Shown here one piece after another: positions 19,713 through 43,042 of a DNA stretch of 43,042 nt. The DNA comes from a virus: the IMG/VR virus record IMGVR_UViG_3300009413_000016, positions 1 through 43,042 of that record. One strand, given 5' to 3'. Under the pieces are notes generated by a model. It was not told the origin of the DNA. It saw nothing but the letters and a program-made list of their open reading frames with translations, and did no database searches. The position numbers were made by a program, and so were the translations under genes. How positions within the stretch are numbered: position 1 is the stretch's first letter; each line of letters opens with the position of its first letter.

Positions 19713-22106
19713 ATGGCCATTCGCAGACACAAGGCTATTGTATCTTTAGGTACGTCTGTTTATAACAACAAAATAACACAGAAAGAAATTACGATTTCTC
19801 AGTTATTTAAACGACTATCAGAGCCAAATAGCCAAACTAAAAAAGACGGTAAGTATTTTATATTCGCGTCATTTGAAGGAAATGAGCGAAATGCTAAAAC
19901 GATAAAAGAGCATTATGGCGCAGTCATAGACTTAGATGATACAAGTCTCACATTAACCAAGATTAAAAAGAAGTTTGCTAAATACCCGCATTGTATATAC
20001 AGCACACATTCACATAAGGCAAAAGGTAAAGGCGATAGATTCAGATTAGTCTTACCATATAAACAGCCAATAGATAATACGACTCACGTCGAAACTATGC
20101 TTTACCTTATGGATACGCTTGGCGCTAAAGATGTGGATTTATCTTCTAAAGCTTTATCTCGGCCGATGTATCTTCCTGCAGTTCATCCCGACAGAAAAGG
20201 AACATTTGAGTATTTCTCCAATTTAGACGGATTATTCTTTAATCCTCTAAACCAGAATATTCGAGACCAAGTTGCTCAACTTCGTTTTGAACTAGATGAA
20301 AATGCTCTTGCTTCTTCTGAAGCTCCGTTTGACCCGAATACGGACGTAGAAGAAGGCGGACGAAATGATGCTTTAGCCCGGTTCATAGGTAAAACAATAA
20401 AAACAGGAATGGCTGTAGATGAAATTCTACCTATGGTCGAATCTTGGAATCAGATTAAACTTAGCCCTCCGCTTAGCGACAAAGAAGTCAAAACGATATT
20501 TAACTCTATTGTTAATTCTCATAAGAGAAATCACGGAGATTTAGTATGGGGTTATGATGAAATAATATCGAGAATAGATAAGAGCAAAGATATGAGCTCT
20601 GACTTCGACCATATTCTCGATATTATCTGTACTGCTATTGCTAAGAATAAACTTTCTAAAGTAAAAGTCGAATTAATAGTAGATAAACTCAGCAAAAAGT
20701 CTAAAATTGGCAAGCGTACAATTCAGAAAGAAATCACTTCTAAAGAATTAGAACTAGCCGGTAAACTTGAAGAATCTAATGAGGAAGGATTTGAGTCCGC
20801 TGCTAATGCTTTAAAAGAAGATTTCAAAAAATGGGTGTACGTTGCTTCTGATGACCGAGTATATAACCTAAAAACAGGTGAGTATTATAAGCGTGAAGCT
20901 TTCTCAGCCATGTTCGCAAATCCTAATGTTGAAGGCTCTTTGTTTGCGATGATTATGAAATATAATCTGATGAAGAAAGTGTCACGGTTAGAGTTTGACC
21001 CGGCAGAAGCAGAAGTGTATATTCGCGGTGGTGTTAAATACGCTAATACTTATATTTACCCTGACATCTTTCCTTTACCCGGTTCTATTCTTCCAGTGAT
21101 AAAGCATTTTGAATACTTAATACCAGATGAGTATGAGCGCAAAATACTATTGGACTTTATTGCACATTTAGTTCAATTCCCAGGAATCAAAATCAGATGG
21201 ATGCCGGTTATCAAAGGTGGTAAAGGTATCGGTAAAACGATTATTGCGGAAAAAATCATTCTGCCTATAATCGGATTCACTAATTTCGGTAAAGTGAATA
21301 ATGAGGTAATTAAATCCGACTTTAACGCTTGGCAATTAGACAAACAGCTGGTGGTCTTTGAGGAACTTGATATTGGCGCAAATCAGAAAGAGAAAGAGCA
21401 GCTCACTGATAGACTCAAATCGTTTATTACAGATAATATTCTTACTGCACACAGAAAAGGACTAGACCCGTACGATACTATCAACAAGGCCAATTCTCTG
21501 GCTTTTACGAATAAAGATGATGCGATAATTATCACCGCAGATGAGCGTCGATTCTGTATGATTCGTACAGATGTAAAACCACAGAAGGATGAATACTATC
21601 AGCGGTTAGCGAATTTTGCTGATAAGAATTTAAGCCAAATATATTACTTTTTTATGGAACGAGATTTATCCGACTTTTCGCCTCTACGAGCTCCTGAAAC
21701 TGACTATACGAAAGAAGTTAAAGCGCTATCTATGGGATGGCCAGGTTCAATCGTTAACGCGTGGATACAAGACCCAAGCCATCCTATTCATAAAGCCGGA
21801 TGCGTGAGTAATACTCAAGTAGTAGATTTTGTACGAGCAGAGTCCACCGGCCGTTATCGGTCATTAGCAGAAGACTTACAAAGCCCGGGTTCCAGCCAAG
21901 CGAAAAAGCTTTACTATACTTTGCGAAACTTCGGCTTTTCTAAGTATGAAAATCCGAGCAGCAATGATGGAAGAATACGCATAAATGGGAAACTTGAAAC
22001 AGTGTGGCTAATGCCAGAATCTGGACTAGAGAAGTCTGCGTCTAAATTAGTTTTGCGTAAATTACGCCAAATAAAAATACGGGATGATAATTGGGATGAA
22101 GGTTAA
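19713..22106 (+). CDS. bifunctional primase (prim-pol type) / SF3 helicase
   Basis: N-terminal VIDLDD and STHSH motifs. PriCT-like GGRNDALARFIGK. Walker A GGKGIGKT, Walker B LVVFEELD. Confidence 0.8.
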   Translation: MAIRRHKAIVSLGTSVYNNKITQKEITISQLFKRLSEPNSQTKKDGKYFIFASFEGNERNAKTIKEHYGAVIDLDDTSLTLTKIKKKFAKYPHCIYSTHSHKAKGKGDRFRLVLPYKQPIDNTTHVETMLYLMDTLGAKDVDLSSKALSRPMYLPAVHPDRKGTFEYFSNLDGLFFNPLNQNIRDQVAQLRFELDENALASSEAPFDPNTDVEEGGRNDALARFIGKTIKTGMAVDEILPMVESWNQIKLSPPLSDKEVKTIFNSIVNSHKRNHGDLVWGYDEIISRIDKSKDMSSDFDHILDIICTAIAKNKLSKVKVELIVDKLSKKSKIGKRTIQKEITSKELELAGKLEESNEEGFESAANALKEDFKKWVYVASDDRVYNLKTGEYYKREAFSAMFANPNVEGSLFAMIMKYNLMKKVSRLEFDPAEAEVYIRGGVKYANTYIYPDIFPLPGSILPVIKHFEYLIPDEYERKILLDFIAHLVQFPGIKIRWMPVIKGGKGIGKTIIAEKIILPIIGFTNFGKVNNEVIKSDFNAWQLDKQLVVFEELDIGANQKEKEQLTDRLKSFITDNILTAHRKGLDPYDTINKANSLAFTNKDDAIIITADERRFCMIRTDVKPQKDEYYQRLANFADKNLSQIYYFFMERDLSDFSPLRAPETDYTKEVKALSMGWPGSIVNAWIQDPSHPIHKAGCVSNTQVVDFVRAESTGRYRSLAEDLQSPGSSQAKKLYYTLRNFGFSKYENPSSNDGRIRINGKLETVWLMPESGLEKSASKLVLRKLRQIKIRDDNWDEG

Positions 22107-22425
22107 AAGTAAAAAACAACTTTCGGTTAAACCAAAACCAGTTAAACCGAAATTTAAAAAAGGCGCTAATCACGTAGATTACGCCAATATAATTTATACA
22201 GAAGAATTTGACCATTACCAAGCATATATAAAAGAAACGTGTTTAGATGGAAACCAAAAGAGTGCCAGATTAATAATACACGTTATGCTTCCATCTGGCC
22301 AAAATTTACCGTGCTACCACGCTGATTGCATACGCCCAGATTTAAATATGGCTGTAGCAGTCCTTCGTGACCAAATAAGCGAATGGCGATATGCGTTTAA
22401 TACCAGAAATATCGAGTCGCTTTAA
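22084..22425 (+). CDS. basic protein, unknown function (113 aa; start may be the ATG at 22096)
   Basis: ORF track; overlaps the primase stop; Lys-rich N-terminus. Confidence 0.5.
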   Translation: MIIGMKVKSKKQLSVKPKPVKPKFKKGANHVDYANIIYTEEFDHYQAYIKETCLDGNQKSARLIIHVMLPSGQNLPCYHADCIRPDLNMAVAVLRDQISEWRYAFNTRNIESL

Positions 22426-22543
22426 AAAGATAATTGGATAATAATAAGAAATTATGCAATTATTTAGTTTACTCAACCTGCGTTTAAGTCTACTATAATT
22501 ATGCTTTTACGCAAAAACTTAATTTAACAAAGGAAATTTTCAA

Positions 22544-23095
22544 ATGGCTAAAATTATTATCGAAACTGAAGACAAAGCTCTGGCAAAAGCAATCGCCGAA
22601 ATCCTGGGCACTTCAGCTGCAGCTACTTCTGGCAAAGCGTCGAATAAAAAGACTGCTCCTGAAGTAGAAGAAGCAGATGAAGAAGAAATCACAGTAGACA
22701 TGATTGTCGAGCTGTGTAAAGAAATCGGTGCGAAAGAATGTCGTCCAATTCTGAAAGACGCCGGTTATTCAAACCCGACTGCGTTGAAGAAAGATAAAGA
22801 CGTAGATGAAGATACTTTGGCTGAAATCTACGAGCAGCTTCTGGAACTTCAAGAACCTGAAGAAGACGAAGACGAAGACGAAGACGAAGACGAAGACGAA
22901 GACGAAGACGAAGACGAAGACGAAGACGAAATCGACGTTGAAACCGTCAAAAAAGCAGTTCAAGCTTTTGCCAAAGAAAACGGCAAAGAAGAAGCTGACG
23001 AAATCCTCGAAGAATTCGAAATCAAGTCTGTTCGCTCTCTGAAGAAACTGTCTCAAGAGCAGCTCGAAGAGCTTTACGAAGCTGTTACTGAATAA
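22544..23095 (+). CDS. highly acidic protein with an (ED)11 tract; candidate DNA mimic or chaperone
   Basis: 183 aa, very Asp/Glu-rich. AAGGAA RBS, its own upstream TATAAT (22494-22499) and a downstream terminator. Confidence 0.6.
   Translation: MAKIIIETEDKALAKAIAEILGTSAAATSGKASNKKTAPEVEEADEEEITVDMIVELCKEIGAKECRPILKDAGYSNPTALKKDKDVDEDTLAEIYEQLLELQEPEEDEDEDEDEDEDEDEDEDEDEDEIDVETVKKAVQAFAKENGKEEADEILEEFEIKSVRSLKKLSQEQLEELYEAVTE
22862..22927 (+). repeat. hexanucleotide microsatellite (GAAGAC)x11, in frame within the acidic protein gene
   Basis: Counted directly: 66 nt of perfect gaagac repeats. Confidence 0.95.
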
Positions 23096-23122
23096 GTAGT
23101 AATTTACCGATTTTGAAAGTTC

Positions 23123-23150
23123 AAAAAGGCGGGCTTTTGCTCGCCTTTTT
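23123..23150. terminator. intrinsic terminator (bidirectional type)
   Basis: AAAAA-GGCGGGC-TTTT-GCTCGCC-TTTTT; 7-bp stem including one G-U pair. Confidence 0.75.
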
Positions 23151-23169
23151 AGTATTAAGGAGAAAATCC

Positions 23170-23352
23170 ATGAAATCAATGCCACATGAACTTCGTGATT
23201 TAATTGACGATGCAAAGAAAAATCGTATCCAGGCCATCCGTTTCGGCGGCTCAGAACAAATTACGTCTGAAGAAATTAAAGAAGCTCAAGAAGCTTTAGC
23301 TTCAGGCAATGAAAAGAAAATGCATATTGCCATTCAAATTCTCAAAGGCTAA
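23170..23352 (+). CDS. protein of unknown function (60 aa)
   Basis: ORF track 23113-23352, trimmed to the ATG at 23170 preceded by AAGGAGA. Confidence 0.55.
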   Translation: MKSMPHELRDLIDDAKKNRIQAIRFGGSEQITSEEIKEAQEALASGNEKKMHIAIQILKG

Positions 23353-23355
23353 AAT

Positions 23356-24624
23356 ATGTCACACTCCAGATTAGCAGCTTCTAAAGCTCCGCAATGGATT
23401 CGCTGCCCTGGCTCAATAGCGTACGTTGAATTCCTGATAAAGGAAGGCAAAATACCAGAAGACAAAGCCGGCGATGCAGCTCGATTAGGTACAGCAGTTC
23501 ACGATATAATCGAGCATTGTATCAAGCAGGAAATCCATCCTCGCGCTCTTACAAAGCGGCAAATTGACCGAATAGTAAAGGCAGACCCTGAAACCAAAAA
23601 CATTATCATTACTTCTAAAGAAATCGGCGGCGCTTCTATGTGTGTCGAACGCGCTGAATTACTTAGAGGTGAATTTGATGAATTATTTGCAGAACGTAAA
23701 TACGACCTATCATTTCGTTATGATGTTGATTTAGGCGGAACATGTGATATCTCTGCTTTTCAACAAAATGGATGGTTGGCAATTGAAGATTATAAGAATG
23801 GCCGCGGAGCTGTAGAAGCTTCTAGTTACCAGCTTATGATTTACGCGCTTGGCGCTTATCATAACGAAGGAGATTGGTATAATTTTCAGAATGTACGGCG
23901 TACGGTTATTCAGCCTAATGCTTCACATCCTGAAGGTAAAATTCGCTCTGAAGAAATATCGGTCTACGAGCTGCTCAAATGGGAAGAAGAAGTACTTGCT
24001 CCAGCGGTTACTAAGATTGCGAGAAATACTGCCGAGTTAATTCCTGGCCCAATTCAATGTGAGTGGTGTCCTGCGCGACATTTGTGTGAAGCGAATGCCA
24101 AGGATTCACTCAGCATAGCTCAAATCGATTTTCAGAATGTAGCAAGCCCAAAGCCAGAACTCCCCGCACCTCAAAGCTTAAGCAAAGACCAACTCGCGTT
24201 TGTCGTTGATAATAAAAGCCGGATTCTCAAGTTTCTAGATGCGTGTGAGAACCACGTGTTTAAAACCATTGAGAGGGGAGAACAAATTGGTGATTACCAT
24301 TTAGAAAATAAAATTGGCAACAGAGTTCTATTGGAAGAAAAGTTAAAACGTAAGTTAAAACTTAAACGCATTTCCGTAGAAGATGTTACAATGACACCTG
24401 AACCTAAGCTGATGACAGTAACTCAGCTTGAAGCTTATCTTGCGGCTGTTAAAAAATGGCCAAAAGATAAGATAGCCAAATTCATGGAATCTGTCACTGA
24501 GAAGCCTATAACAGGCCAAAAGCTGGCAAAGACCTTGAATACCGCTGAATCCGATTTCAGCAATCTGAAAACTTCGAAAACTTCGAAAACTTCGAAAAAT
24601 AGAAAACTTAGGAGGCCACGATAA
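23356..24624 (+). CDS. PD-(D/E)XK exonuclease, Cas4/RecB-like (DUF2800-type)
   Basis: N-terminal W.RCPGS. Nuclease core GGTCD...IEDYK. C-terminal Cys cluster CEWCPARHLC. Confidence 0.75.
   Translation: MSHSRLAASKAPQWIRCPGSIAYVEFLIKEGKIPEDKAGDAARLGTAVHDIIEHCIKQEIHPRALTKRQIDRIVKADPETKNIIITSKEIGGASMCVERAELLRGEFDELFAERKYDLSFRYDVDLGGTCDISAFQQNGWLAIEDYKNGRGAVEASSYQLMIYALGAYHNEGDWYNFQNVRRTVIQPNASHPEGKIRSEEISVYELLKWEEEVLAPAVTKIARNTAELIPGPIQCEWCPARHLCEANAKDSLSIAQIDFQNVASPKPELPAPQSLSKDQLAFVVDNKSRILKFLDACENHVFKTIERGEQIGDYHLENKIGNRVLLEEKLKRKLKLKRISVEDVTMTPEPKLMTVTQLEAYLAAVKKWPKDKIAKFMESVTEKPITGQKLAKTLNTAESDFSNLKTSKTSKTSKNRKLRRPR
24568..24594 (+). repeat. 9-bp tandem repeat (aaaacttcg)x3 encoding KTS KTS KTS
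   Basis: Read directly; lies in the C-terminal tail of the exonuclease gene. Confidence 0.9.
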
Positions 24625-25325
24625 TGGCAACTACAAGAACTTCACGTACTCGCCGTCGCTCAGAAGAATCTGATGCACCCCGTTCTACTCGCTCTGCCCG
24701 TTCTGCCCGCTCATCGCGCCGCGAATCTTCTAAAGGTTCATCGGCAAAAGTGACCGGCCGTTTCATCACTGGTAAAGCCCGTTCGTCTTTTATGCGAGTG
24801 ATTAAGCTTGAAGAAGATGACAATGGAAATAAAGTGTGTAAAACGGGAATCATGATTCCTAAGAAAGACCGTAAGACGGTGAAGGCTCTTAAAGAAACAA
24901 TCCAGGCTGTTGCGCGTCAAAAATTCGGTAACGAAATTGACATCTTCAAATCCAAGAAAATGCATAATCCTTTGTTAGATGGTGATGAAGCCGCAGACGA
25001 CCCTGAGATTCCATCCGTTGGCAATGAATCGCGCGGATATTATTTACTTAATGCCAAAGCGTATAAATTGCCTCAAGTAGTAGATAAGCATAATGAGCGA
25101 ATTACAGATATTGACGAGCTCGAAGAAATTTGCGTATCTGGTTTCTGGTTCCGCTTCTCATTAACTTTTAAAGCATTTGATAACGAATCGCGCGGCGTGC
25201 GCGTGCTGTTGAACAATCTCATGTTTGTCGAAGAAGGCGAACGACTCGACGGCGGCAAGTCTGCTGAAGAAGACTTTGAAGACTTCGCAGAAGAAGGTGA
25301 TGATGACGAAGGTTGGGACGATTAA
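24624..25325 (+). CDS. ssDNA-binding protein (DUF2815-type) with an Arg/Ser-rich N-terminal extension and an acidic tail
   Basis: AGGAGG RBS. Core GRFITGKARSSF...KTGIMIPK. C-terminus EEGDDDEGWDD. Conserved position between the exonuclease and the polymerase. Confidence 0.65.
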   Translation: MATTRTSRTRRRSEESDAPRSTRSARSARSSRRESSKGSSAKVTGRFITGKARSSFMRVIKLEEDDNGNKVCKTGIMIPKKDRKTVKALKETIQAVARQKFGNEIDIFKSKKMHNPLLDGDEAADDPEIPSVGNESRGYYLLNAKAYKLPQVVDKHNERITDIDELEEICVSGFWFRFSLTFKAFDNESRGVRVLLNNLMFVEEGERLDGGKSAEEDFEDFAEEGDDDEGWDD

Positions 25326-25341
25326 TCCGCGAGGATAGTCA

Positions 25342-25371
25342 ATCCCGTCTCTTATGAGGCGGGATTTTTTT
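25342..25371 (+). terminator. intrinsic terminator
   Basis: ATCCCGTCTC-TTAT-GAGGCGGGAT (one G-U pair) followed by T7. Confidence 0.8.
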
Positions 25372-25394
25372 AGTATTCAATTTAAGGATTAATT

Positions 25395-27413
25395 ATGCAA
25401 TTACCCACCAGCTTTTTTGATATAGACTTCGAAACACGCTCAGAGCTCGATATTACACAAGTTGGGGCTAGAGCTTACGCCGAGCATCCATCTACTGAAA
25501 TACTAATGATAAGCTTTTCATTAAACGAAAAAAGCGTTTATAATTGGAATCCTTATTTTTCAAATCCAAAGGCATTAATAAAATTAAAAAATGGAATTCG
25601 CCAAGTAAAACGCGGTAAAAAAGTAATCCGCGCGCATAATGCCGAGTTCGAATACTGGATTTGGAATCTTGTAGGAACGCGGCAATTTGGTTGGCCAGAA
25701 TTTAGTATAGATAAATTTTACGATACGATGGTTGTATGCTGCATAGCCGGTTTTCCTGCCTCACTTGAAAACGCATCTGAAACTTTAGATTTAGTAGATA
25801 AGAAAAATAAAAGCGGTAAAGCGCTAATTAACTTCTTTTCAAAACCGTCTCGTAAAAAAGATGAAAAATGGAAAGACCCGATTGTCTATAAATCCAAATT
25901 TTTTGAATTCATTGAGTACTGTGACGATGACGTACGCGCTCAAATTGGTATTGCAAAAGCCTGTCCGCCAATGACGCTTCGGCAATATCAGGTCTACCAA
26001 TTAACCGAGCAGATGAATATACGTGGATTACCAATAGACGCGCCTATGGCGAGAGGAGCCCTGGAGCTCGTAGAGCAATACAAGGAGCGGGCTAATAGGC
26101 AAATACAAAAAATCACAAAGGGTGCGATAGAGAGTGCGACGCAAAACGTAGCGTTACAGAAATGGCTCAATGATAACGGCAGTCCGATACCGAATATGCA
26201 GGCGGCGACAATTGAGAAATATTTGAATAATCCAAAGACTCCTAAATTGGTAAAACAGGTACTTACTATTCGCTCTAATGTTTCCAAATCTTCTACGGCG
26301 AAATATAAAGCTGCGCTTACATATCTCACTTCCAAAAGCACTGTCCACGGGTTTATCAAAGCTTTCATCGCTAGAACAGGCCGATGGGGCGGACGCGGTC
26401 TACAAATTCAAAACTTCTCAAAGCCGGATAAAGACTTTCCGTATTGGTGCGATTATAATGTGCTAGCAAAAGCAATTGCCGACGTGGATATGTGGTTCAT
26501 AGAGGCTATTTACGCGGATGTCATGCAAGCTTTGAAAGCCGCTACACGCGCCATGATATATGCTCCTAAAGGTAAAAAGTTTATATGCGCGGATTACTCT
26601 CAAATTGAAGCGCGCATAGTTATGTGGCTTGCAGGCGATAAAGTCGGATTGAAAGATTTTGATGGAGAAGGTAAAATATACGAAAGTATGGCGGCTGATA
26701 TTTTTAGCGTATCTATATCCTCTATTAAGAAACCATCCTTTGAGCGCGATGTAGGTAAAGAGGTAGTTCTTGGGTGTGGTTTTGGCATGGGAGCAGACAA
26801 ATTCATTTTCCGATGCGTCGAGCAGCGCGGGCTTAAGGTAACAAGAGAAGTTGGTGTTAAAGGCGTTAAAGGATATCGTACTCGGTATAAACGTGTGCCA
26901 GAAGCTTGGAAAGAATGTGAGCGCGCAGCTATCTCTGCTATCAACAACTGCGGCGCAGTATATACCGCGTGTAATGGAAAATTAGCGTATAAAAAAGTCA
27001 GCCATTGGCTTATAGTACGACTACCATCTAGCCGTAAGCTGTATTATCCTTACGCAAAAGTGGTAATGGAAATAAATAACTTTGGCAAAGAGCAAGAGGT
27101 GATATACTATAAAAACTGGAATCAACAGGCTCCAGCAGGCCGCAAGTGGGAAGATGAACGCACTTGGGGCGGAACATTATTCCAGCATGGTGTTCAAGCT
27201 ACAGCGATGGACATCATGGCAAATGGAATGCTTAATGCAGAAAAGAAAGGATATCCGGCGCTATTCACTGTACACGATGAATCGTTGGCTATGGTTAACG
27301 AAGATTTTGGAACAGTAAAAGAGTATGAAGATATCTTATGCGAACTTGAACCCTGGGCGCAAGGCTTACCAATTGTTGCAGAAGGTTGGGAAGACACCCG
27401 GTATAAAAAGTAA
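25395..27413 (+). CDS. family A DNA polymerase with 3'-5' exonuclease domain
   Basis: Exo motifs FDIDFETRS and HNAEFE. Polymerase motifs ADYSQIEARI, RDVGKEVVLGCGFGMG and VHDES. Confidence 0.9.
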   Translation: MQLPTSFFDIDFETRSELDITQVGARAYAEHPSTEILMISFSLNEKSVYNWNPYFSNPKALIKLKNGIRQVKRGKKVIRAHNAEFEYWIWNLVGTRQFGWPEFSIDKFYDTMVVCCIAGFPASLENASETLDLVDKKNKSGKALINFFSKPSRKKDEKWKDPIVYKSKFFEFIEYCDDDVRAQIGIAKACPPMTLRQYQVYQLTEQMNIRGLPIDAPMARGALELVEQYKERANRQIQKITKGAIESATQNVALQKWLNDNGSPIPNMQAATIEKYLNNPKTPKLVKQVLTIRSNVSKSSTAKYKAALTYLTSKSTVHGFIKAFIARTGRWGGRGLQIQNFSKPDKDFPYWCDYNVLAKAIADVDMWFIEAIYADVMQALKAATRAMIYAPKGKKFICADYSQIEARIVMWLAGDKVGLKDFDGEGKIYESMAADIFSVSISSIKKPSFERDVGKEVVLGCGFGMGADKFIFRCVEQRGLKVTREVGVKGVKGYRTRYKRVPEAWKECERAAISAINNCGAVYTACNGKLAYKKVSHWLIVRLPSSRKLYYPYAKVVMEINNFGKEQEVIYYKNWNQQAPAGRKWEDERTWGGTLFQHGVQATAMDIMANGMLNAEKKGYPALFTVHDESLAMVNEDFGTVKEYEDILCELEPWAQGLPIVAEGWEDTRYKK

Positions 27414-27437
27414 TTTTAATTAAGTCGGAGAGTAATT

Positions 27438-27800
27438 ATGAGTGAAATTAAACACGAAGAAATGGTTGCTGTGCTAGCTAAGCCTGGTGATAAAGTAATG
27501 CAGGATTTGACGCCAAGTACTGCAGATTTGCTTCATATGGCCGTTGGTGTATCTGGTGAAGCGGGCGAGCTTTTAGACGCAGTGAAAAAAGCCGCAATTT
27601 ATGCCAAACCAATTGACCGCGAAAATGTTATCGAAGAGCTCGGTGATTTAGAGTTTTACATTGAAGGCATACGCCAAAATTTAGGTATTAGCCGCGAAGA
27701 AACGCTTCAGGCTAATATCAAAAAACTTAAGGTTCGATATGAAGGCCTTAAATACTCAAACCAAGCAGCGCAAGAGCGCGCTGACAAAGCCGGAGAATAA
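27438..27800 (+). CDS. MazG-like nucleoside triphosphate pyrophosphohydrolase
   Basis: GEAGELLDAVKK and EELGDLEFY motifs; 120 aa. Confidence 0.7.
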   Translation: MSEIKHEEMVAVLAKPGDKVMQDLTPSTADLLHMAVGVSGEAGELLDAVKKAAIYAKPIDRENVIEELGDLEFYIEGIRQNLGISREETLQANIKKLKVRYEGLKYSNQAAQERADKAGE

Positions 27801-27802
27801 TT

Positions 27803-28267
27803 ATGACCGCTAAAACCAAAGAACCAACATTTGAAGATTTACACAGCGATAAGTCCTCAGCAGAACTGATGGCTTTAATTGGTGGAACAACCGATAAACG
27901 CGAAAAAGCGACGTTGTCAAAACTTCTACGTTTCCGCCTTCGTAAAGAAGAAGAAGAAATTAAAGAAGAATTGAAGCAAGCGGCCGAAGACAGCAAAGAA
28001 GAAAAACGCCTTCTGAAGCAGACTCAAATCGACTTCATGGAAGCGCGCAAAGCTTATCTCGCATCTTATCGTGATATGAATGCTATCATTAATGGTAAAT
28101 CCATGTTGAAGCATCTGCCTGACTTCTCAGAAAAGTGCGCAGACTTTAAAGAAAAATCGGCAGCATTCTTAACTTCTATGGATGCTCATCTGTCTAACCT
28201 GGCCGCGGTTAAACGCAGCTTAAATGGCGAATCGACTGAAGACAATGCTGAGCAAACAGAAGACTGA
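27803..28267 (+). CDS. coiled-coil protein, unknown function (154 aa)
   Basis: ORF track; GGAGAA RBS; Lys/Glu-rich. Confidence 0.55.
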   Translation: MTAKTKEPTFEDLHSDKSSAELMALIGGTTDKREKATLSKLLRFRLRKEEEEIKEELKQAAEDSKEEKRLLKQTQIDFMEARKAYLASYRDMNAIINGKSMLKHLPDFSEKCADFKEKSAAFLTSMDAHLSNLAAVKRSLNGESTEDNAEQTED

Positions 28268-28544
28268 AGCTCCAGTCGAAAAGTATTGCGTAACCTCCGT
28301 GCAAAAGCGCGGAGGTCTTTGTTTAAAATTGGCCATTATAGGCAAGCGCAACTTTCCCGACCGTACGATACTTTGCAAACCCGGCAAAGTTTTTTTCATT
28401 GAATTTAAGGCCCCAAATAAAGACTTACGAAAATCACAAGCTTGGTTTAGGCGGCTTTTACTGAGATTAGGATTTACCGTATATGTCGCAAAAACAAAAG
28501 AACAAGTTGACCAAATCCTTGACAAAGAGATGGAAGCCTCGTAG
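28224..28544 (+). CDS. VRR-NUC domain nuclease
   Basis: PDR...GKVFFIEFK (D...ExK) motif. Start is uncertain (28224 or 28245). Confidence 0.7.
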   Translation: MANRLKTMLSKQKTEAPVEKYCVTSVQKRGGLCLKLAIIGKRNFPDRTILCKPGKVFFIEFKAPNKDLRKSQAWFRRLLLRLGFTVYVAKTKEQVDQILDKEMEAS

Positions 28545-29943
28545 TTATCAACAAATGTGCGTGGATGAAGGACTGAAGCGCAAATTCCTCGCTTTCTTTA
28601 TAGACCCAGGTTTAGGCAAAACCTCAATCACCCTCCAAATATTCAACAAGCGCAAATTACGTGGTCAAGTAAAAGCCATGCTTGTGGTCGCGCCATTAAA
28701 TCCGTGCTATATGACATGGGGTCCAGAAATAAAAGAATGGACCAACTTCCGTCGATTTAAATCAGTAGTTCTACACGGCCCAATGAAAGAAGCTAATCTA
28801 AAAAAACAAGCGGATATCTACATCATAAATCCTGAAGGCCTTCAATGGTTAGCTACTAAGCTAAAAGGTAAGCGCAAAGTAAACTGGCCATTTGACATGC
28901 TCGTGGTTGATGAATCAAGTAAGTTCAAAAGCGCGGACTCATCACGCTCAAAACTTATGCACAAGATGGCTCCTGCGTTTCCTTATCGGTATATACTAAA
29001 TGGTACACCTGTCGCAAATGGGTATATGGGGTTAATGAGCCAGATGAGAATAGTAGACCAAGGGCAAAGCTTAGGAGCCAAAATTACGTATTACCGCCAG
29101 AAATATTTTGAACAATATGGAAAACCAGAATGGCGCATGTTCAAACTTTCTAAAGGCGCAGATAAACGCATCATGAAAAAGATTGCACCATTTGCTGTCT
29201 GCCTAAAAGCTGAAGACCACGTAGACATGCCGAAAGTCAATATGTATCCGCGATTTATCAAACTGAATCCACGCTCCAAAAAACTTTATGACGAGATTGA
29301 AACAGAATTCTTTGCAGAAATAGATAACAAAGAATTGATAGCGGAATCCGCGTCATCACTTGCCACTAAACTCCATCAGATATGCAATGGTTCTATATAC
29401 GAAGACCAGGACCCTCTAGGTAAGCCTCTCCCTTCAAGTAAGCGGAAAATCATATCTCTACATTCTGAGAAGTTAAGTGCACTCGAGGACCTGATAGATG
29501 AGTTTAACGGTAAGCCGATTCTTATTGGATACAAGTTTCAACACGATAAAACTACGCTGAAAAACCATTTTAAGAATAAAATTAAATTCTTTGATGATGC
29601 AAAGACAGAGCAGCAGAAAGTTAAGCTTCAAAAAGATTGGAATGCAGGCAAGATAGACTTACTTGCTGGTAATCCTCAATCAGTTGGCCATGGACTTAAT
29701 CTTCAAAAAGGCGGGGCGTCGGTAATATGCATGTATTCCATCGACCATGACTATGAAATCTTCGACCAGTTCAGAAGGCGACTATATAGAAGCGGCAACT
29801 CAGCGAATTCAGTTTCGATTGCACTTCTTGTGGCAGAAGGACTGTATGACCACATGGTTATCTATCCAAACTTAGTTAAAAAGAAAGGTGTGCAAGACTC
29901 GTTTATGGACCGATTAATCGCCTATAGAAACAGCAGAAAATAA
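28483..29943 (+). CDS. SNF2-family (SF2) helicase / translocase
   Basis: DPGLGKT (motif I), VVDESSKFK (motif II), C-terminal QSVGHGLNLQ. A 62-nt overlap with the VRR-NUC gene is required to include the PRSYQ motif. Confidence 0.8.
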   Translation: MSQKQKNKLTKSLTKRWKPRSYQQMCVDEGLKRKFLAFFIDPGLGKTSITLQIFNKRKLRGQVKAMLVVAPLNPCYMTWGPEIKEWTNFRRFKSVVLHGPMKEANLKKQADIYIINPEGLQWLATKLKGKRKVNWPFDMLVVDESSKFKSADSSRSKLMHKMAPAFPYRYILNGTPVANGYMGLMSQMRIVDQGQSLGAKITYYRQKYFEQYGKPEWRMFKLSKGADKRIMKKIAPFAVCLKAEDHVDMPKVNMYPRFIKLNPRSKKLYDEIETEFFAEIDNKELIAESASSLATKLHQICNGSIYEDQDPLGKPLPSSKRKIISLHSEKLSALEDLIDEFNGKPILIGYKFQHDKTTLKNHFKNKIKFFDDAKTEQQKVKLQKDWNAGKIDLLAGNPQSVGHGLNLQKGGASVICMYSIDHDYEIFDQFRRRLYRSGNSANSVSIALLVAEGLYDHMVIYPNLVKKKGVQDSFMDRLIAYRNSRK

Positions 29944-30382: not shown

Positions 30383-30430
30383 ATGTACATTGGATAGAAA
30401 CATTGTACAATGGCTACATCATCGAGCAAA
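30383..30430 (+). promoter_or_regulatory. promoter P3: ATGTAC-N17-TACAAT plus conserved leader
   Basis: -35-like 30383-30388, -10 at 30406-30411. Leader GGCTACATCATCGAGCAA. Confidence 0.6.
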
Positions 30431-30460
30431 ACGTTATACACATATACACGAGGAAACGTC

Positions 30461-30979
30461 ATGTTAAACATCGCTAAAGTTACTGCTGAATCTATCAAAT
30501 CTCTGTCTACCAAGGAAATCGTTGAGCTGTACAACGCTACTCTTGCACAAGTCAATGCTTCTTCTGAAGCTGAACCCCGCACTCCAGTTAAGAAATTCCG
30601 TGACCGCACAACTGCAGAATCTCGCCTTCTTAAAATCAAACAAGAATGGCAAGATATCGCAGACGGTCATACTTCTGATGTTGAAGAAAAAGCTCCAGCC
30701 AAAAAGCTTGCTAAGAAAAAAATCAAAAAAGTAAAAAAATCTGAAGTTGGTAAGCCGAAAGGTTCTATCAAGAACGTAACAATTGGTTTAATCACTGAAG
30801 GCGCAGAAGATAAAGAAATCGTTGAGGAAGTTAAAGCACAATTTCCAGATTCTAAATTTGACTTCAGCCATGTATCTTGGTACCGTTCGACTCTATTCCG
30901 CGATGGTATCATAGGTCCTGAGCACGCGCCTCGCCGTTCCAAAGCGTATAAAACTTGGAAACAAAGCGAAGAAAAATAG
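30461..30979 (+). CDS. lysine-rich DNA-binding-like protein; its C-terminal domain is paralogous to the N-terminal domain of 31049-31420
   Basis: ORF track 30410-30979, trimmed to the ATG at 30461 (GAGGAA RBS). Central KAPAKKLAKKKIKKVKK. The C-terminal domain aligns by eye with the next gene. Confidence 0.65.
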   Translation: MLNIAKVTAESIKSLSTKEIVELYNATLAQVNASSEAEPRTPVKKFRDRTTAESRLLKIKQEWQDIADGHTSDVEEKAPAKKLAKKKIKKVKKSEVGKPKGSIKNVTIGLITEGAEDKEIVEEVKAQFPDSKFDFSHVSWYRSTLFRDGIIGPEHAPRRSKAYKTWKQSEEK

Positions 30980-31048: not shown

Positions 31049-31420
31049 ATGCCAGCACAAAAAGCAAAACCATCTGCCAAAAGTATCATTGAAACCGGTA
31101 TCGAAGGCGGTAAAACCGTAAAATTCATTTTAAGCCAAATTGCCAAGAAACTGCCCGATTCAAAAGCTGATGAATCTCATGTTCGTTTTTATGCGAATAA
31201 AATGGTTCGCGATGGTAAATTAGACGAAACCACGGCGCAAGAAAAATATGGATGTGGTAAGCGTGGGCGCAAACCTGCTGAAGGTAAAACAGCGGCTAAG
31301 AAAGCCCCAGCAAAATCTACTACCGCTAAAAAGGCTCCGGCAGCAAAAAAGGCTCCAGCCGCGAAAAAACCTGCGGCCAAAAAGACTACATCGAAGCGGA
31401 AAACTACTTCAGCGAAGTAA
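31049..31420 (+). CDS. histone H1-like protein (globular N-terminal domain plus AKKAPA-repeat tail)
   Basis: GAGGAA RBS. Tail reads AAKKAPAKSTTAKKAPAAKKAPAAKKPAAKKTTSKRK. Confidence 0.7.
   Translation: MPAQKAKPSAKSIIETGIEGGKTVKFILSQIAKKLPDSKADESHVRFYANKMVRDGKLDETTAQEKYGCGKRGRKPAEGKTAAKKAPAKSTTAKKAPAAKKAPAAKKPAAKKTTSKRKTTSAK
31345..31351 (+). promoter_or_regulatory. candidate -1 ribosomal slippery heptamer A_AAA_AAG, in the zero frame of 31049-31420
   Basis: Codons are GCA AAA AAG. This is the same heptamer as the E. coli dnaX frameshift site. The -1 frame is open from here to 31638. Confidence 0.35.
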
Positions 31421-31491: not shown

Positions 31492-31640
31492 GTATCTGAT
31501 GAAAGTTTTACTCTAAAAAATGTAATTGTAATAAATGCCAATTTATTTCCACATGGAGTAGTAAGAACAACATCTTCACTTGATAAGTTCAGGCAACTAT
31601 TTAATAAATTAATTGATAATCATGCTTGCAGGAGAATATA

Positions 31641-32444
31641 ATGTCCGAAAGAGAATTCGACCAGACTCAGCTTAAACTGGCTCAGTTTAAATACCAACCC
31701 CATAAAGATTACCTTGGCCACATTTTTCGTTGGGGCTTTGCTTCTAAATACGTAAATAAAAATGTGGCCGTGCTCGATGTCGGATGTGGTCAAGAAATGC
31801 CATTTGCTCGCTCATTAGGCGGTTCTAATCCGAATTCAGTTCCATCTAAATACGTTGGAGTTGACTTAAATAAAATTCCAAACCCGGTTACACGCAAGAA
31901 CTTTCATGTTGAAGACGAATTCAACTTCACTAAGAAATTCCGGACGTTGAAACGTCAGCATGGCCAATTTGATGTAATTGTTAATTTCGAAGTATTTGAA
32001 CATATGACCATGGGACATGCCCGTAAACTTCTCAAAGGTATGCGTTATTTACTTGCTGAAAATGGCGTTCTTATTTTTAGCACGCCCGTGTATTGCTCTA
32101 CGTATAAGCAAGCAAATAACCACATTAACGAAGTCACTAAAAAAGAAATGGAAGATGAACTCCATAAAGCTGGCTTCAAAATCATTAAGCAATTCGGCAC
32201 ATTCGCCAATATTAATGATATCAAAAAAGTTGCTGCTAAAGACGAGCTTGAGTCGCACAAAGCTATGGCTGAATTTTACGGTAACGAAATTTTGGGTTGC
32301 TACTTAAGCCCGAAATATCCTGAAGCATCTCGCAATGTTACGCACATCTGCGTGCGTGATGACGATGGTAGAAAAGAATGTACATTAAAAGATTCTATCG
32401 TTAAATTTACAGGCGAACCATACGGAAAATCGAGGGATAAATAA
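31641..32444 (+). CDS. class I SAM-dependent methyltransferase
   Basis: ORF track start is a TTG at 31626, trimmed to the ATG at 31641 (AGGAG RBS). Motif I VLDVGCGQE, then VIVNFEVFEHM and NGVLIFSTP. Confidence 0.75.
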   Translation: MSEREFDQTQLKLAQFKYQPHKDYLGHIFRWGFASKYVNKNVAVLDVGCGQEMPFARSLGGSNPNSVPSKYVGVDLNKIPNPVTRKNFHVEDEFNFTKKFRTLKRQHGQFDVIVNFEVFEHMTMGHARKLLKGMRYLLAENGVLIFSTPVYCSTYKQANNHINEVTKKEMEDELHKAGFKIIKQFGTFANINDIKKVAAKDELESHKAMAEFYGNEILGCYLSPKYPEASRNVTHICVRDDDGRKECTLKDSIVKFTGEPYGKSRDK

Positions 32445-33421
32445 TGTTTAATTTAGTAAAAAAGATGGTAACTGAGCTTCAAGGCCATCCGGCTCCAGAA
32501 AAGCCAATTGCTCTTAGTAATGACGAATACGAGTTTCGGCTCATTGCCTTTGAAGAAGAAATCAATGAATACTCGGATGGGCATGTTACTGACAATTTAG
32601 AAGAACAACTTGATGCTCTTGTAGATTTAGTTGTCTTCGCTATGGGAGCTGCGGCAATTCAAGGTTTCGACTTTGAAGCAGCTTTCAAACGCGTAATGAA
32701 TGCTAACTTGGATAAACGAGTTGGCATAACCAAACGCGGTCATGCTAATGACCTGATGAAGCCGGCTTATTGGCGCGCTCCGTATCTCGGTGATTTGATT
32801 GACAAGCAGACTGAGAAAAAAGGCATCATCATTCTTGAAGGCCCAGACGGTGCAGGTAAAACTACGTTGGCCGAGTTCCTTAAAAAAGAATATGGCGCTT
32901 ATGTGATGCATTCTACGTGGTCTCCAGAGCTTGAAGCTGATATGGAAAAATACATGGAAATCACTACGCGTATGGCTCTGGAAATTTCGCAGAATCAACT
33001 TGTGGTTCTTGACAGACATTGGCTAAGCGAGTTGGTCTATTCTGATGTATTTCGTGGCGGTCATAACCGCACGGGTATGTATTTTGAAAGCCATAAAGCT
33101 CTTATTGGCGGAATTCATACTAAGAATAAGCTCGTAATATGCTTGCCAGATGTAGAAAAAGCTAAATTACATTTTGCGCGTTTAAAAGAGCAGCGCGAAG
33201 AAATGTATAGTAATATAAACGGCGTTATTCATGCGTACGGCGCAATATGCGATAATTCATGTTCTCATCATTTTAAAAACGAAAATGAAGAATATCTGCA
33301 AATGTGCCTAAATGGAGGTTTAACTCGCCGCCCAGACCGATGCATCCGCTATAATTGGATGGAGCAAGGCCACGACATGAAACAATTCTGCGAAACATAT
33401 TTATTTGGAGATAATCAATGA
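32444..33421 (+). CDS. fusion protein: all-alpha MazG-like NTP pyrophosphohydrolase domain (N-terminal) plus thymidylate-kinase-like P-loop kinase (C-terminal)
   Basis: N-terminal EEINEY...EEQLDALVDLVVFAMG...RVMNANLDKR. C-terminal ILEGPDGAGKTTLAEFL and VVLDRHWLSELVY. TAATG overlap upstream and ATGA overlap downstream. Confidence 0.7.
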   Translation: MFNLVKKMVTELQGHPAPEKPIALSNDEYEFRLIAFEEEINEYSDGHVTDNLEEQLDALVDLVVFAMGAAAIQGFDFEAAFKRVMNANLDKRVGITKRGHANDLMKPAYWRAPYLGDLIDKQTEKKGIIILEGPDGAGKTTLAEFLKKEYGAYVMHSTWSPELEADMEKYMEITTRMALEISQNQLVVLDRHWLSELVYSDVFRGGHNRTGMYFESHKALIGGIHTKNKLVICLPDVEKAKLHFARLKEQREEMYSNINGVIHAYGAICDNSCSHHFKNENEEYLQMCLNGGLTRRPDRCIRYNWMEQGHDMKQFCETYLFGDNQ

Positions 33422-34239
33422 TTCGTTTTCAACGTACTACCACAGATACCTGGCTGAGTCTTCTAGATAGTATTATGACTCATGGCCGAAAAGTCAGTCC
33501 ACGGGGTCAAGATACTTTGGAAATGATTAGTTGCACTTCTGAAGTGGATATGAATACTCCAATCGTTTCAAGCTTCGTAAGAAATATTAATACCAAGTTT
33601 TTATTTGGTGAAGCATGGTGGATTCTGTCCGGCAGTAATCGCGTATCTGACATCACTCCTTATCTTAAAAACATTGCCCAGTTTAGCGATGACGGTATTA
33701 CATTTAATGGCGCTTACGGCCCTAAGGTTATTGACCAACTACCTTATGCGCTAAAATGCCTCGTTGATGATGAATGTAGCCGCCAAGCGGTTATTAGTAT
33801 CTGGCGCGAGAAACCGGCTCCGTCCAAAGATATTCCATGCACATTGTCACTGCAGTTCTTTATCAGAGATGGTAAACTCCACACTCAAGCGAACATGCGT
33901 TCTTCTGACGCATGGTTAGGTTGGGTTTATGACGTGTTCAACTTTTCTATGATTTCAGCTTGGTTAGCGATTGCACTTCGCAGGCATGAAAAATATAAAG
34001 CGTTGACCTTAGGCGAACTTTATTTAACCGCTGGCTCTCAGCATCTTTATATGCGAAATAAAGATAAAGCCGTTGAAGCACTCGACATCATTTTTGAAAA
34101 TCATGTAGACGTCAATCCAATTAAACTGTCATGGTATACTCATCCTGAAGAGCTAGTTACAGACTTACGTCTTGCGGCGAATGACACTCCAGGTTCTCGG
34201 ATTATTTCTATGGTTGAAAATATGCGGAGTCCAAAATAA
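33418..34239 (+). CDS. thymidylate synthase homologue, predicted deoxycytidylate C5-hydroxymethylase (or methylase)
   Basis: Catalytic Cys in IPCTLSLQFFIRDGKL. NMRSSDAWLGWVYDVFNF has Asp where ThyA has Asn177 (RSCDVFLGLPFNIASY). GSQHLY motif present. Confidence 0.7.
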   Translation: MIRFQRTTTDTWLSLLDSIMTHGRKVSPRGQDTLEMISCTSEVDMNTPIVSSFVRNINTKFLFGEAWWILSGSNRVSDITPYLKNIAQFSDDGITFNGAYGPKVIDQLPYALKCLVDDECSRQAVISIWREKPAPSKDIPCTLSLQFFIRDGKLHTQANMRSSDAWLGWVYDVFNFSMISAWLAIALRRHEKYKALTLGELYLTAGSQHLYMRNKDKAVEALDIIFENHVDVNPIKLSWYTHPEELVTDLRLAANDTPGSRIISMVENMRSPK

Positions 34240-34673
34240 TGCGTAAATCCAAGCTTCAATATTTTATTGACTTGGCGAAACTTGTGTCTTCTAGAGCCTC
34301 GTGTTCTAGAAGACAAGTGGGTTGCGTTTTAGTTGATGAACATGACCATGTACTTTCTACTGGATACAATGGTCCACCTAAAGGTATTCCTAATTGCACC
34401 GATAAGCCTTGCGCAGGAGCCCATCTTCCATCAGGTCAAGGGCTAGACGTTTGCCAAGCGGTACACGCGGAGATGAATGCGGTTATCCAATGTAAAGACG
34501 TGCACGCTATTACCAAAGCATACGTAACTACAGCGCCGTGTTTGCATTGCCTGAAAGTTTTGGCTAATACCTCTTGCCAAGAGATTTTATTCGTTGATGA
34601 TTACCCAGGAAGCGAGCGGTCAAAAGATATGTGGGAAATGATAGGCAGAAAATGGACGCGAGTTATACAATAA
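34239..34673 (+). CDS. dCMP deaminase
   Basis: Zinc motifs HAEMNAV and PCLHCLK; TAATG overlap with the upstream gene. Confidence 0.85.
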   Translation: MRKSKLQYFIDLAKLVSSRASCSRRQVGCVLVDEHDHVLSTGYNGPPKGIPNCTDKPCAGAHLPSGQGLDVCQAVHAEMNAVIQCKDVHAITKAYVTTAPCLHCLKVLANTSCQEILFVDDYPGSERSKDMWEMIGRKWTRVIQ

Positions 34674-42630: not shown

Positions 42631-43042
42631 TACAATTCGACTCCACTATTTAAGTCTCTGGAAGCCTGTTCCCATACCGGTTCAAGCTCTCGAGCTATAT
42701 CACGCGCTATCTGCCGTGCATTACTTCTCGTTGTGCCACTTGTATCTTCGTTGCCATTAACTTCTACTTTAATTCCGCCAAGAGATATACTAGTTTGGTT
42801 ATTAATAGATTGATTTGTGTCAGACCGATTAATAGTATTTTCTGTTAAGGTGCCATCGGTTTCACCTGTGAATCCTTGAAAAGAAGCCATGTCAAAGCCA
42901 AAATCGCCGGAAGGCAAATCCTCAAATCCAAGTAATGGCATATCAAAACTTGGTAAATCTCCAACTTCTATTTGAGGAATATCAAAACTAGGTAAATCTC
43001 CAACTTCTATTTGAGGAATATCAAAACTTGGTAAATCTCCAA
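42630..43042 (-). CDS. tail tape measure protein, 3' end (continuation of 1-1530; 42945-43042 duplicates 1-98)
   Basis: The ORF-track entry 42630-42941 starts at an internal Met. The frame stays open upstream through the 39-bp repeats to the window edge. Combined non-redundant length is 1845 nt (614 aa). Confidence 0.85.
   Translation of the reverse strand, partial: GDLPSFDIPQIEVGDLPSFDIPQIEVGDLPSFDMPLLGFEDLPSGDFGFDMASFQGFTGETDGTLTENTINRSDTNQSINNQTSISLGGIKVEVNGNEDTSGTTRSNARQIARDIARELEPVWEQASRDLNSGVEL
42941..43042. repeat. 39-bp tandem repeat, copies 1, 2 and part of 3 (same array as 1-113)
   Basis: Units at 42941-42979, 42980-43018 and 43019-43042. Units differ only at one position (tt versus ta). 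Confidence 0.95.

Follow-up and report, generated by a model that had tools for sequence, protein, structure and literature searches.

A virus sequence of 43,042 nt (IMG/VR virus record IMGVR_UViG_3300009413_000016, positions 1 to 43,042; this whole stretch is called the window below) encodes a single polypeptide in which an all-alpha NTP pyrophosphohydrolase (PPase) is fused to a thymidylate kinase (Tmk)-like P-loop kinase. We propose, with a probability of about 0.6, that this protein is bifunctional and serves a pathway exchanging cytosine in phage DNA for 5-hydroxymethylcytosine or a derivative of it. Both enzyme types are known; our literature searches returned no earlier description of the PPase-kinase fusion. 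Gene fusions are among the strongest signs, obtainable from sequence only, that two activities work together. The gene and its segments are as follows (residue conservation is taken from alignment A1, i.e. 32 full-length fusion homologues):

32444..33421, + strand: fused NTP pyrophosphatase-nucleotide kinase gene, single ORF, 325 aa plus stop
32444..32809, + strand: N-terminal domain, residues 1-122, DR2231/PRA-PH-type all-alpha NTP pyrophosphatase of the MazG superfamily
32552..32626, + strand: acidic metal-binding motifs, residues 37-61 (EEE..E42, EE..D57...D61), from A1
32810..33418, + strand: C-terminal domain, residues 123-325, Tmk-like P-loop nucleoside-monophosphate kinase
32840..32863, + strand: Walker A/P-loop GPDGAGKT, residues 133-140, with G133, P134, D135, G138 and K139 invariant
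33011..33016, + strand: Tmk-type D190-R191 ('DRH') motif, both residues invariant
33194..33208, + strand: probable LID segment R251-E-E-M-Y255, from conservation in A1

The ORF starts with ATG and has no internal stops. The original prediction of one chain with a MazG-type PPase fold followed by a Tmk-type kinase is backed by Pfam, PHROG, AF2 and Foldseek, and the motifs quoted in its favour all lie within the ORF (EEEINEY at residue 37, EEQLDALVD at 53, GPDGAGKT at 133 and LDRHW at 189). The fusion is genuine, since 15 independent metagenome contigs from ENA, JGI and Logan assemblies encode the identical protein; another fused homologue, 77-78% identical to the window protein, occurs on 21 contigs. 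An unrecognised stop or a sequencing error splitting the ORF is thereby all but ruled out. It is scarcely credible that assembly or sequencing joined two neighbouring genes: it is true that every deposited phage genome has them as two genes, frequently with an overlap of a few bases, but the identical ORF came from different projects and assemblers, dozens of diverged fused homologues (33-78% identity) share a conserved linker region, DLxKPxGWxAP, and the AF2 model of the fusion (pLDDT 92.4, pTM 0.89) packs the two domains together. Full-length homologues that keep both catalytic residue sets number at least 32 (33-78% identity).

The N-terminal domain belongs to the all-alpha NTP pyrophosphohydrolase superfamily (MazG/PRA-PH/DR2231-like). 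Pfam PRA-PH (PF01503) matches residues 14-88 with 30.4 bits (cut-off 21.3, E 5.3e-7), and residues 3-125 match phrog_671 (1.9e-18) and phrog_18404 (1.3e-14), both NTP pyrophosphohydrolase/hydrolase families. The AF2 model is helical across residues 2-89 (pLDDT >93) and forms a four-helix bundle, in which E38, E39, E42, D57 and D61, invariant across the 32 homologues, make up an ExxE...ExxD metal-binding arrangement. In Foldseek the N-terminal half superposes on DR2231 of Deinococcus radiodurans (PDB 2yeu, 5hva) with a TM-score of 0.71 and an rmsd of 2.7 A. Both have a four-helix all-alpha fold with acidic metal-binding helices, and both carry the segments ANLxK and KPxGW, at 22-24% identity; DR2231, a dUTP-specific MazG-like dUTPase, is a stand-alone cellular house-cleaning enzyme, unlike the fused domain.

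The profile searches also bear out the kinase half. It matches phrog_761 ('thymidylate kinase') over residues 126-268 (4.6e-19), and two Pfam models, Thymidylate_kin (PF02223, 28.1 bits against a cut-off of 27, best stretch residues 131-151) and AAA_28 (PF13521, 27.9 bits), start at residue 129 and score barely above their cut-offs. The Tmk-type P-loop (EGPDGAGKTT, 131-140) and D190-R191-H are present; among the 32 homologues Y255 is invariant and conservation reaches 90% or more at R251, E253 and M254, and by analogy with Tmk the segment R251-Y255 is the probable LID. The Tmk equivalog model TIGR00041 gives 33.8 bits against a cut-off of 83.25, on the P-loop only, so the domain is Tmk-like and not a Tmk orthologue. 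Its Foldseek matches are YorR of the Bacillus SPbeta prophage (2axp/3kb2, TM 0.66-0.69), PPK2 and Tmk. YorR and bacterial Tmk share with it the P-loop NMP-kinase fold, the Tmk-type Walker A and the DR motif at 14-18% identity, and the YorR deposits assign no function, calling it just 'hypothetical' or 'uncharacterized protein'.

The original prediction had offered as an alternative that the kinase half phosphorylates hydroxymethyl groups in DNA after replication, as a first step to hypermodification, in the manner of the 5-HMUDK enzymes. These (M6 gp54, ViI gp67) are likewise small P-loop kinases encoded beside TS (thymidylate synthase) homologues in phages with modified pyrimidines, and the cassette described below contains an otherwise unexplained methyltransferase. 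This role is nevertheless very unlikely. The 5-HMUDKs act on 5hmU in DNA and form another family, phrog_800, which M6 gp54, an authentic member, matches at 2e-39 and the fusion does not match at E<=0.01; pairwise BLAST of the fusion with M6 gp54 aligned 21 P-loop residues and nothing else. The nearest structures are nucleotide kinases, and the neighbouring TS homologue is of the cytosine-specific type (Asp at Ec N177), not a dUMP hydroxymethylase. No aGPT-Pplase, PLP or radical-SAM partner gene of a 5-HMUDK was found among the ORFs scanned, which lie outside the structural-gene half of the window.

The fusion gene is the second of four translationally coupled genes, in the order SAM-methyltransferase, fusion, TS homologue, dCMP deaminase:

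31641..32444, + strand: class I SAM-dependent methyltransferase, 267 aa from ATG (PF13489 at 2.3e-16)
33418..34239, + strand: TS homologue, predicted dCMP hydroxymethylase, its start overlapping the fusion stop (ATGA)
34239..34673, + strand: dCMP deaminase, last gene of the cassette (PF00383 2.5e-19, phrog_174 1.4e-35)

The methyltransferase stop overlaps the fusion start (TAATG); an alternative TTG start for the methyltransferase is present at 31626. Its fold resembles that of methyltransferases acting on small molecules and nucleotides rather than on DNA, a PDB sequence search returned no matches, and in deposited phages it is seen only beside this cassette. A further 18 plus-strand and unassigned ORFs, outside the late structural half, were scanned (10 with Pfam, 9 with PHROG, one with both), and no glycosyltransferase, aGPT-Pplase or other DNA-modification enzyme was found among them. 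A megablast search with the cassette matched none of 50,697 deposited phage genomes; this phage has no close cultured relative among them.

The specificity of the TS homologue was read with published rules for the positions Ec N177, L143 and D169 (PMC13326640). The equivalents in the window protein are D172 (Ec N177), D138 (Ec L143) and D164 (Ec D169, retained), and C141, D138, D172 and D164 align with T4 gp42 C148, D145, D179 and D171. The controls at the Ec 177-equivalent behaved as expected, with Asn in the M6 dUMP hydroxymethylase and Asp in T4 gp42. The L143-equivalent rule is a heuristic, as the XP12-like phage Xoo-sp2 has Asn there. XP12 DNA carries 5-methylcytosine. The best PDB match of the TS homologue is the CMP hydroxymethylase MilA (3.6e-25), with true TS at ~1e-11. 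Given the residue signature of a T4 gp42-type dCMP hydroxymethylase (the Cys148, Asp179 and Asp145 equivalents), this protein most likely makes 5-hydroxymethyl-dCMP.

These residues weigh against an ordinary thymidylate-supply module, in which a dUTPase-Tmk fusion would work with a TS and a dCMP deaminase. Such a module is assumed by the published annotations of Stenotrophomonas phage AXL3 and Pseudoxanthomonas phage PW916, which carry related cassettes; it would agree with the kinase motifs (EGPDGAGKTT, DRH..S...Y), with DR2231-like proteins being dUTPases, and with Microbacterium phage Eula, in which the PPase-kinase pair occurs with no modifying enzyme. It is unlikely all the same, as Asp takes the place of Asn at the Ec N177 position of the TS homologue and also occupies that of L143, the protein's match to MilA is 14 orders of magnitude better than to any TS, the kinase falls far under the Tmk equivalog cut-off, and AXL3 also encodes ThyX and has DNA that is blocked at G/C-containing sites.

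For the cytosine-replacement pathway we infer the substrates of both domains as follows. The N-terminal domain would hydrolyse a canonical pyrimidine dNTP to the monophosphate and pyrophosphate; its target is most likely dCTP, possibly also dUTP. Hydrolysis of dCTP would keep this nucleotide from the polymerase and supply dCMP, which the separate, translationally coupled TS homologue would convert to 5-hydroxymethyl-dCMP. The C-terminal domain would take the modified dCMP from mono- to diphosphate, a substrate suggested by the cytosine-specific TS homologue nearby, and the host NDP kinase would complete the final phosphorylation. The dCMP deaminase would divert some dCMP to dUMP for thymidylate synthesis. 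The earlier idea that one chain removes a canonical dNTP and phosphorylates the modified dNMP made by the next gene is the best-fitting reading, as the specificity residues of the TS homologue encoded there point to modification of dCMP. Its wording of substrate channelling was imprecise, in that the PPase product dCMP would not be the kinase substrate; a separate hydroxymethylase intervenes, so the two steps are not consecutive.

By analogy, the fusion would correspond functionally to T4 gp56 (dCTPase) and gp1 (dNMP kinase) joined in one chain and drawn from unrelated families. The likeness to the T4 hydroxymethylcytosine pathway (gp56, gp1, gp42, cd) lies in dCTP destruction, dCMP hydroxymethylation, dNMP phosphorylation and the dCMP deaminase, and T4 gp42 and the window TS homologue have the Cys148/Asp179/Asp145 equivalents in common. 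In T4 gp56 and gp1 are separate, whereas the window has both predicted activities in one polypeptide. T4 gp56 showed no significant homology to the N-terminal domain (hhalign of A1 with gp56, probability 0.4%), which counts against membership in the gp56 family and not against dCTPase activity. T4 gp1 (PDB 1DEK/1DEL) is not in the top 50 structural matches of the Tmk/YorR-like kinase half, and the dNMP kinase family phrog_139 is matched by the P-loop of the fusion only. T4-type glucosyltransferases are missing from the window ORFs scanned, and a SAM methyltransferase is present instead.

The original prediction had also pointed to a second PPase gene and had supposed that the two PPases have different targets. 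The second gene is real:

27438..27800, + strand: stand-alone classical MazG pyrophosphatase beside DNA polymerase A (PF03819 2.2e-6, phrog_229 5e-41)

It found no PDB sequence matches and has no detectable pairwise similarity to the fused N-terminal domain; the two are of different families, which fits different targets. The dCTPase role could belong to this stand-alone MazG instead. In that version of the pathway, a doubtful but realistic one, the fused domain is a dUTPase: the deaminase floods the cell with dUMP, a relaxed Tmk-like kinase carries it to dUDP and on to dUTP, the tethered dUTPase clears this by-product, and exclusion of dCTP is left to the stand-alone MazG or to polymerase selectivity. 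The presence of a second MazG beside the polymerase speaks for it, as do the ANLxK segment shared with DR2231 and the standing of DR2231, whose crystal structures contain dUMP and a dUTP analogue resistant to hydrolysis, as the nearest structural and sequence relative. However, the choice between dCTP and dUTP is not readable from the sequence of the domain, and at a TM-score of 0.7 and 22% identity the DR2231 specificity is not transferable. Moreover, in the cassette contigs examined this PPase is the sole pyrophosphatase linked to a cytosine-specific TS homologue, and T4 gp56 (by the T4 annotation) is an example of a single enzyme acting as both dCTPase and dUTPase.

The fused form is absent from every deposited phage record; among these records MW202510 alone spans 80% or more of the query, with two separate genes. 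Adjacent, separate PPase and kinase genes in the same order are found in MW202510, AXL3, uvMED S28-C10, VAP7, Eula and a Tara contig, and in PW916 an overlapping ORF directly after the PPase, left without annotation, encodes the kinase. The pairs of AXL3 (gp30/gp29), PW916, MW202510 and uvMED S28-C10 are homologous to the two halves of the fusion (29-42% identity) and differ in being two genes; their cassettes likewise include the TS-like and dCMP deaminase genes, and those of AXL3, PW916 and MW202510 also the methyltransferase. The order [methyltransferase]-PPase/kinase-TS-like-dCMP deaminase recurs on unrelated phage backbones. In Eula the pair has no adjacent TS homologue, so the link of PPase and kinase to base modification is not a strict one. 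The kinases of AXL3 and of the marine L014 have an extra C-terminal domain of ~140 aa, missing from the window protein and without a Pfam match.

AXL3 is a cultured phage with the split cassette and a TS-like enzyme 52% identical to that of the window. Of 37 restriction enzymes, 35 fail to cut its DNA and the active ones are cutters of AATT and TTAA, a pattern that points to modified G/C positions (PMC7504290); these data were obtained on AXL3 and not on the window phage. The cassette offers a concrete hypothesis for this unexplained resistance. The highly conserved neighbouring methyltransferase may mark a cytosine derivative that has yet to be described. More speculatively, and we regard this as rather improbable, it may convert 5-hydroxymethyl-dCMP at the nucleotide level to such a derivative (e.g. 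5-methoxymethyl-dCMP or an N-methylated hmC), with the fusion, docked on a dimeric hydroxymethylase, keeping dCTP out and supplying the new nucleotide much as the T4 dNTP-synthetase complex does, in more compact form. If true, this would account for the G/C-site resistance of AXL3 DNA; our literature searches returned no report of methoxymethylcytosine in phage DNA. The fusion and the hydroxymethylase, both probably dimers, would also make a small two-protein system for the old idea of a dNTP-synthetase complex and metabolite channelling.

Across database homologues the two domains are joined in more than one way. Both halves are covered by 36 of the top database clusters, and a census of 240 matches contained 67-79 fusions in the PPase-kinase order; reverse-order, kinase-PPase fusions also exist (e.g. 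P0035, P0058 and P0152). The occurrence of split genes and of both fusion orders across many phages ties to a cytosine-replacement pathway two families whose routine annotation is 'thymidylate synthesis', the DR2231-like PPases and the Tmk-like kinases. The cassette can be re-annotated in abundant marine phages and in cultured phages of clinical interest (AXL3, PW916). Among the longer homologues we saw no triple fusion with TS or deaminase, and the 250-aa gene that follows the reverse-order fusion in L013 is not recognisable as a TS homologue. On a neighbour-joining tree of the kinase domains, whose resolution is too weak for counting fusion events, parsimony gives 17 changes between the fused and unfused states, and all 21 sequences of the clade that contains the window protein are fused.

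The original prediction had read positions 32444-33421 (+) as a single polypeptide joining a MazG-like pyrophosphatase (PPase) to a dNMP-kinase-like domain. This was borne out: the ORF is uninterrupted, each half was recognized independently by Pfam and PHROGs, and the quoted motifs were all found in the positions assigned to them. Four translationally coupled genes (overlaps TAATG, ATGA and TAATG), referred to here as the cassette, include the fusion gene in second place.

Genes of the cassette
31641-32444, +, class I SAM methyltransferase, first gene
32444-33421, +, PPase-kinase fusion, one ORF of 325 codons beginning with ATG and free of internal stops
33418-34239, +, thymidylate-synthase (TS) homologue, third gene
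34239-34673, +, dCMP deaminase, fourth gene

In Pfam, residues 14-88 matched PRA-PH (PF01503), the HisE/MazG-type all-alpha NTP pyrophosphatase family, with a score above the gathering cut-off, and matches to Thymidylate_kin and AAA_28 start at residue 129. In PHROGs, residues 3-125 matched 'nucleotide pyrophosphohydrolase/hydrolase' families (1e-14 to 1e-18) and residues 126-268 matched phrog_761 'thymidylate kinase' (4.6e-19). An AlphaFold2 model with 32 homologues as input (mean pLDDT 92.4, pTM 0.89) was split cleanly into two halves by Foldseek against the PDB, the N-half resembling DR2231, a Deinococcus MazG-like dUTPase (TM 0.71, rmsd 2.7 Å), and the C-half resembling SPbeta YorR, polyphosphate kinase 2 and thymidylate kinases. 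The first domain ends in a conserved DLxKPxGWxAP that aligns with the DR2231 C-terminus, and the interdomain linker is therefore only ~8 residues long. Among the 32 full-length homologues, the metal-binding E38, E39, E42, D57 and D61, the Walker A residues G133, P134, D135, G138 and K139, D190 and R191 of the Tmk 'DR' motif, and Y255 of the probable LID are invariant, and R251 of the LID is at least 90% conserved; the invariant positions coincide exactly with the predicted catalytic ones.

The fusion is genuine rather than artefactual. ENA, JGI and Logan assemblies together yielded 15 contigs on which exactly this 325-aa product was called, a homologue at 77-78% identity was present on 21 contigs, and 32 full-length homologues aligned end to end (33-78% identity); HMMER, run exhaustively against 1.84 billion representatives, returned 3288 relatives, of which 34 reached E ≤ 1e-30. 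Of 240 relatives retrieved for a census, 67-79 were PPase-kinase fusions and 4-7 were fusions in the opposite order, the latter confirmed by Pfam for proteins P0035, P0058 and P0152. The fused form was found in none of 50,697 deposited phage records. In podovirus MW202510, Stenotrophomonas phage AXL3, marine uvMED S28-C10, Vibrio phage VAP7 and Microbacterium phage Eula each protein has its own gene, with the PPase gene next to and ahead of the kinase gene as in the fusion; in Pseudoxanthomonas phage PW916 an overlapping ORF without annotation, directly after the PPase gene, encodes the kinase. The occurrence of split, fused and reverse-fused versions is classic evidence of a functional link between the two activities. 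In a rough NJ tree, with resolution too poor for counting events, fused and split forms are interleaved and the window protein falls in a clade of 21 fused sequences. No description of the PPase-kinase fusion was found in the literature searched; the kinds of enzyme and the pathway logic are already known, and metagenomic phages commonly have the fused architecture. Many unfused kinase relatives have an additional C-terminal domain of ~140 aa that matches nothing in Pfam, and in a few proteins this position is occupied by a uracil-DNA-glycosylase-superfamily domain (PF03167); the examples noted are AXL3 gp29 (L003 4389-5372), marine locus L014 5001-5999, P0062, P0072 and P0093.

On contigs where the fusion shares just 40-47% identity, this gene order again follows DNA polymerase A and an SNF2 helicase; siphoviruses (AXL3, PW916), a podovirus (MW202510) and marine phages have it too, there with PPase and kinase as split genes. 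No element is as constant as the kinase/TS-homologue pair; the methyltransferase, missing from locus L007, HTVC119P and uvMED, is optional. The upstream replication module (19713-29943, +) encodes a primase-polymerase/helicase (797 aa), exonuclease, gp2.5-like SSB, DNA polymerase A, a classical MazG, a VRR-NUC-like small ORF and the SNF2 helicase. Just 5' of the cassette, two small lysine/alanine-rich proteins with AKK/PAAKK repeats (30410-30979 and 31049-31420, +), both matching phrog_17205 (unknown function), look like histone-like or DNA-binding proteins.

The neighbouring TS homologue matched the CMP hydroxymethylase MilA at 3.6e-25 vs ~1e-11 for true thymidylate synthases. By E. coli numbering, Asp at N177 specifies dCMP, an acidic residue at L143 specifies hydroxymethyl rather than methyl transfer, and Asn at D169 marks a 5-hydroxy-dCMP synthase (Lee et al. 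2026, PMC13326640). Residues C141, D172, D138 and D164 of the window protein align with C148, D179, D145 and D171 of T4 gp42, and because these diagnostic residues match, the enzyme is most likely a dCMP hydroxymethylase; the position-143 rule is a heuristic, since XP12-like phage Xoo-sp2 has Asn there. XP12 DNA contains 5-methylcytosine in place of cytosine. Controls behaved accordingly: at the 177-equivalent the M6 dUMP hydroxymethylase carries Asn, and at the 143-equivalent the uvMED S28-C10 and VAP7 homologues carry the methylase-type Val/Leu. These last two (L004 4766-5524 and L010 2129-3031) have Asp at the 177-equivalent and are predicted to be dCMP methylases producing 5-methylcytosine, not hydroxymethylases; both cassettes are without the SAM methyltransferase. 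In XP12-like phages (Xanthomonas phage Xoo-sp2 gp65, L016 4941-5726), the C-terminal region joined to the homologous PPase domain is a different one without a P-loop, and the genes that come next 3' encode a TS homologue (Asp at the 177-equivalent), dCMP deaminase and DHFR; names given to the gp65 family in databases, for instance 'HAD superfamily hydrolase', look like misnomers.

AXL3, a carrier of the split cassette, offers independent experimental support: 35 of 37 restriction enzymes fail on its DNA, which only AATT and TTAA cutters digest, and its authors concluded that G/C positions are modified, leaving the base unnamed (PMC7504290). The published AXL3 and PW916 annotations assign the cassette to thymidylate synthesis, against which the predicted specificity residues of the TS homologue argue. 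The alternative that the kinase half acts on DNA as a 5-HMUDK was not upheld. M6 gp54, a 5-HMUDK, matched phrog_800 (2e-39), to which the fusion had no match, and the two have only the P-loop in common; a dUMP hydroxymethylase reading of the TS homologue was rejected, and thymidine-hypermodification partner genes were not found in the ORFs scanned.

The analysis shows the two folds, their catalytic residues, the linkage of the pair and the specificity of the neighbouring enzyme; the substrates of both fusion domains we infer. The N-domain would convert dCTP (perhaps dUTP too) to the monophosphate, the TS homologue would make 5-hm-dCMP, the C-domain would make 5-hm-dCDP, host NDP kinase would make the triphosphate, and dCMP deaminase would supply dUMP to thymidylate synthesis. 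T4 gp56, gp42, gp1 and cd follow the same logic, whereas the window cassette uses non-orthologous parts: gp56 and the N-domain have no detectable similarity (hhalign probability 0.4%), and the kinase is Tmk/YorR-like, not gp1-like. Least certain is the N-domain's specificity, dCTPase or dUTPase: DR2231 is a dUTPase, and a second, unrelated MazG beside the polymerase (27438-27800), with no pairwise similarity to the fused domain, could be the dCTPase. Substrate channelling as originally proposed must be revised, since the fused activities are steps 1 and 3 and the separate hydroxymethylase performs the step between; it would depend on a fusion-hydroxymethylase complex, which would be plausible.

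More intriguing than the fusion itself is the neighbouring methyltransferase (31641-32444, +), the most conserved cassette gene between contigs (70-78% identity vs 37-60% for the others). In all 5 deposited phage records that contain it, it accompanies this cassette, and in the loci examined it lies only beside hydroxymethylase-type TS homologues (Asp at Ec L143). By predicted fold it is similar to small-molecule, cap-guanine and tRNA-nucleoside methyltransferases and unlike DNA methyltransferases, and it may methylate the modified nucleotide; a methylated hydroxymethylcytosine nucleotide is a possible, if rather unlikely, cassette product. The metagenomic protein P0294 (469 aa) joins a dCMP deaminase domain (3-117) to a homologue of this methyltransferase (257-397), on a contig so short (2162 nt) that read-through or assembly error is possible; the fusion provides a second Rosetta-stone link, tying the methyltransferase to deoxynucleotide metabolism.

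The window (40.5% GC; no tRNA genes found) has a 39-bp tandem repeat (AAAACTTGGTAAATCTCCAACTTCTATTTGAGGAATATC), with a period of 13 codons, at both ends (1-124, ~3.2 copies; 42940-43042, ~2.6 copies), and probably represents an entire phage genome of ~43 kb, circularly closed and opened inside this array. The early protein of ORF 22544-23095 (+), which matches no family, has a Glu-Asp run encoded by a perfect (GAAGAC)x11.5 repeat at 22862-22930; the AXL3 replication module also has a glutamate-rich protein (PMC7504290).
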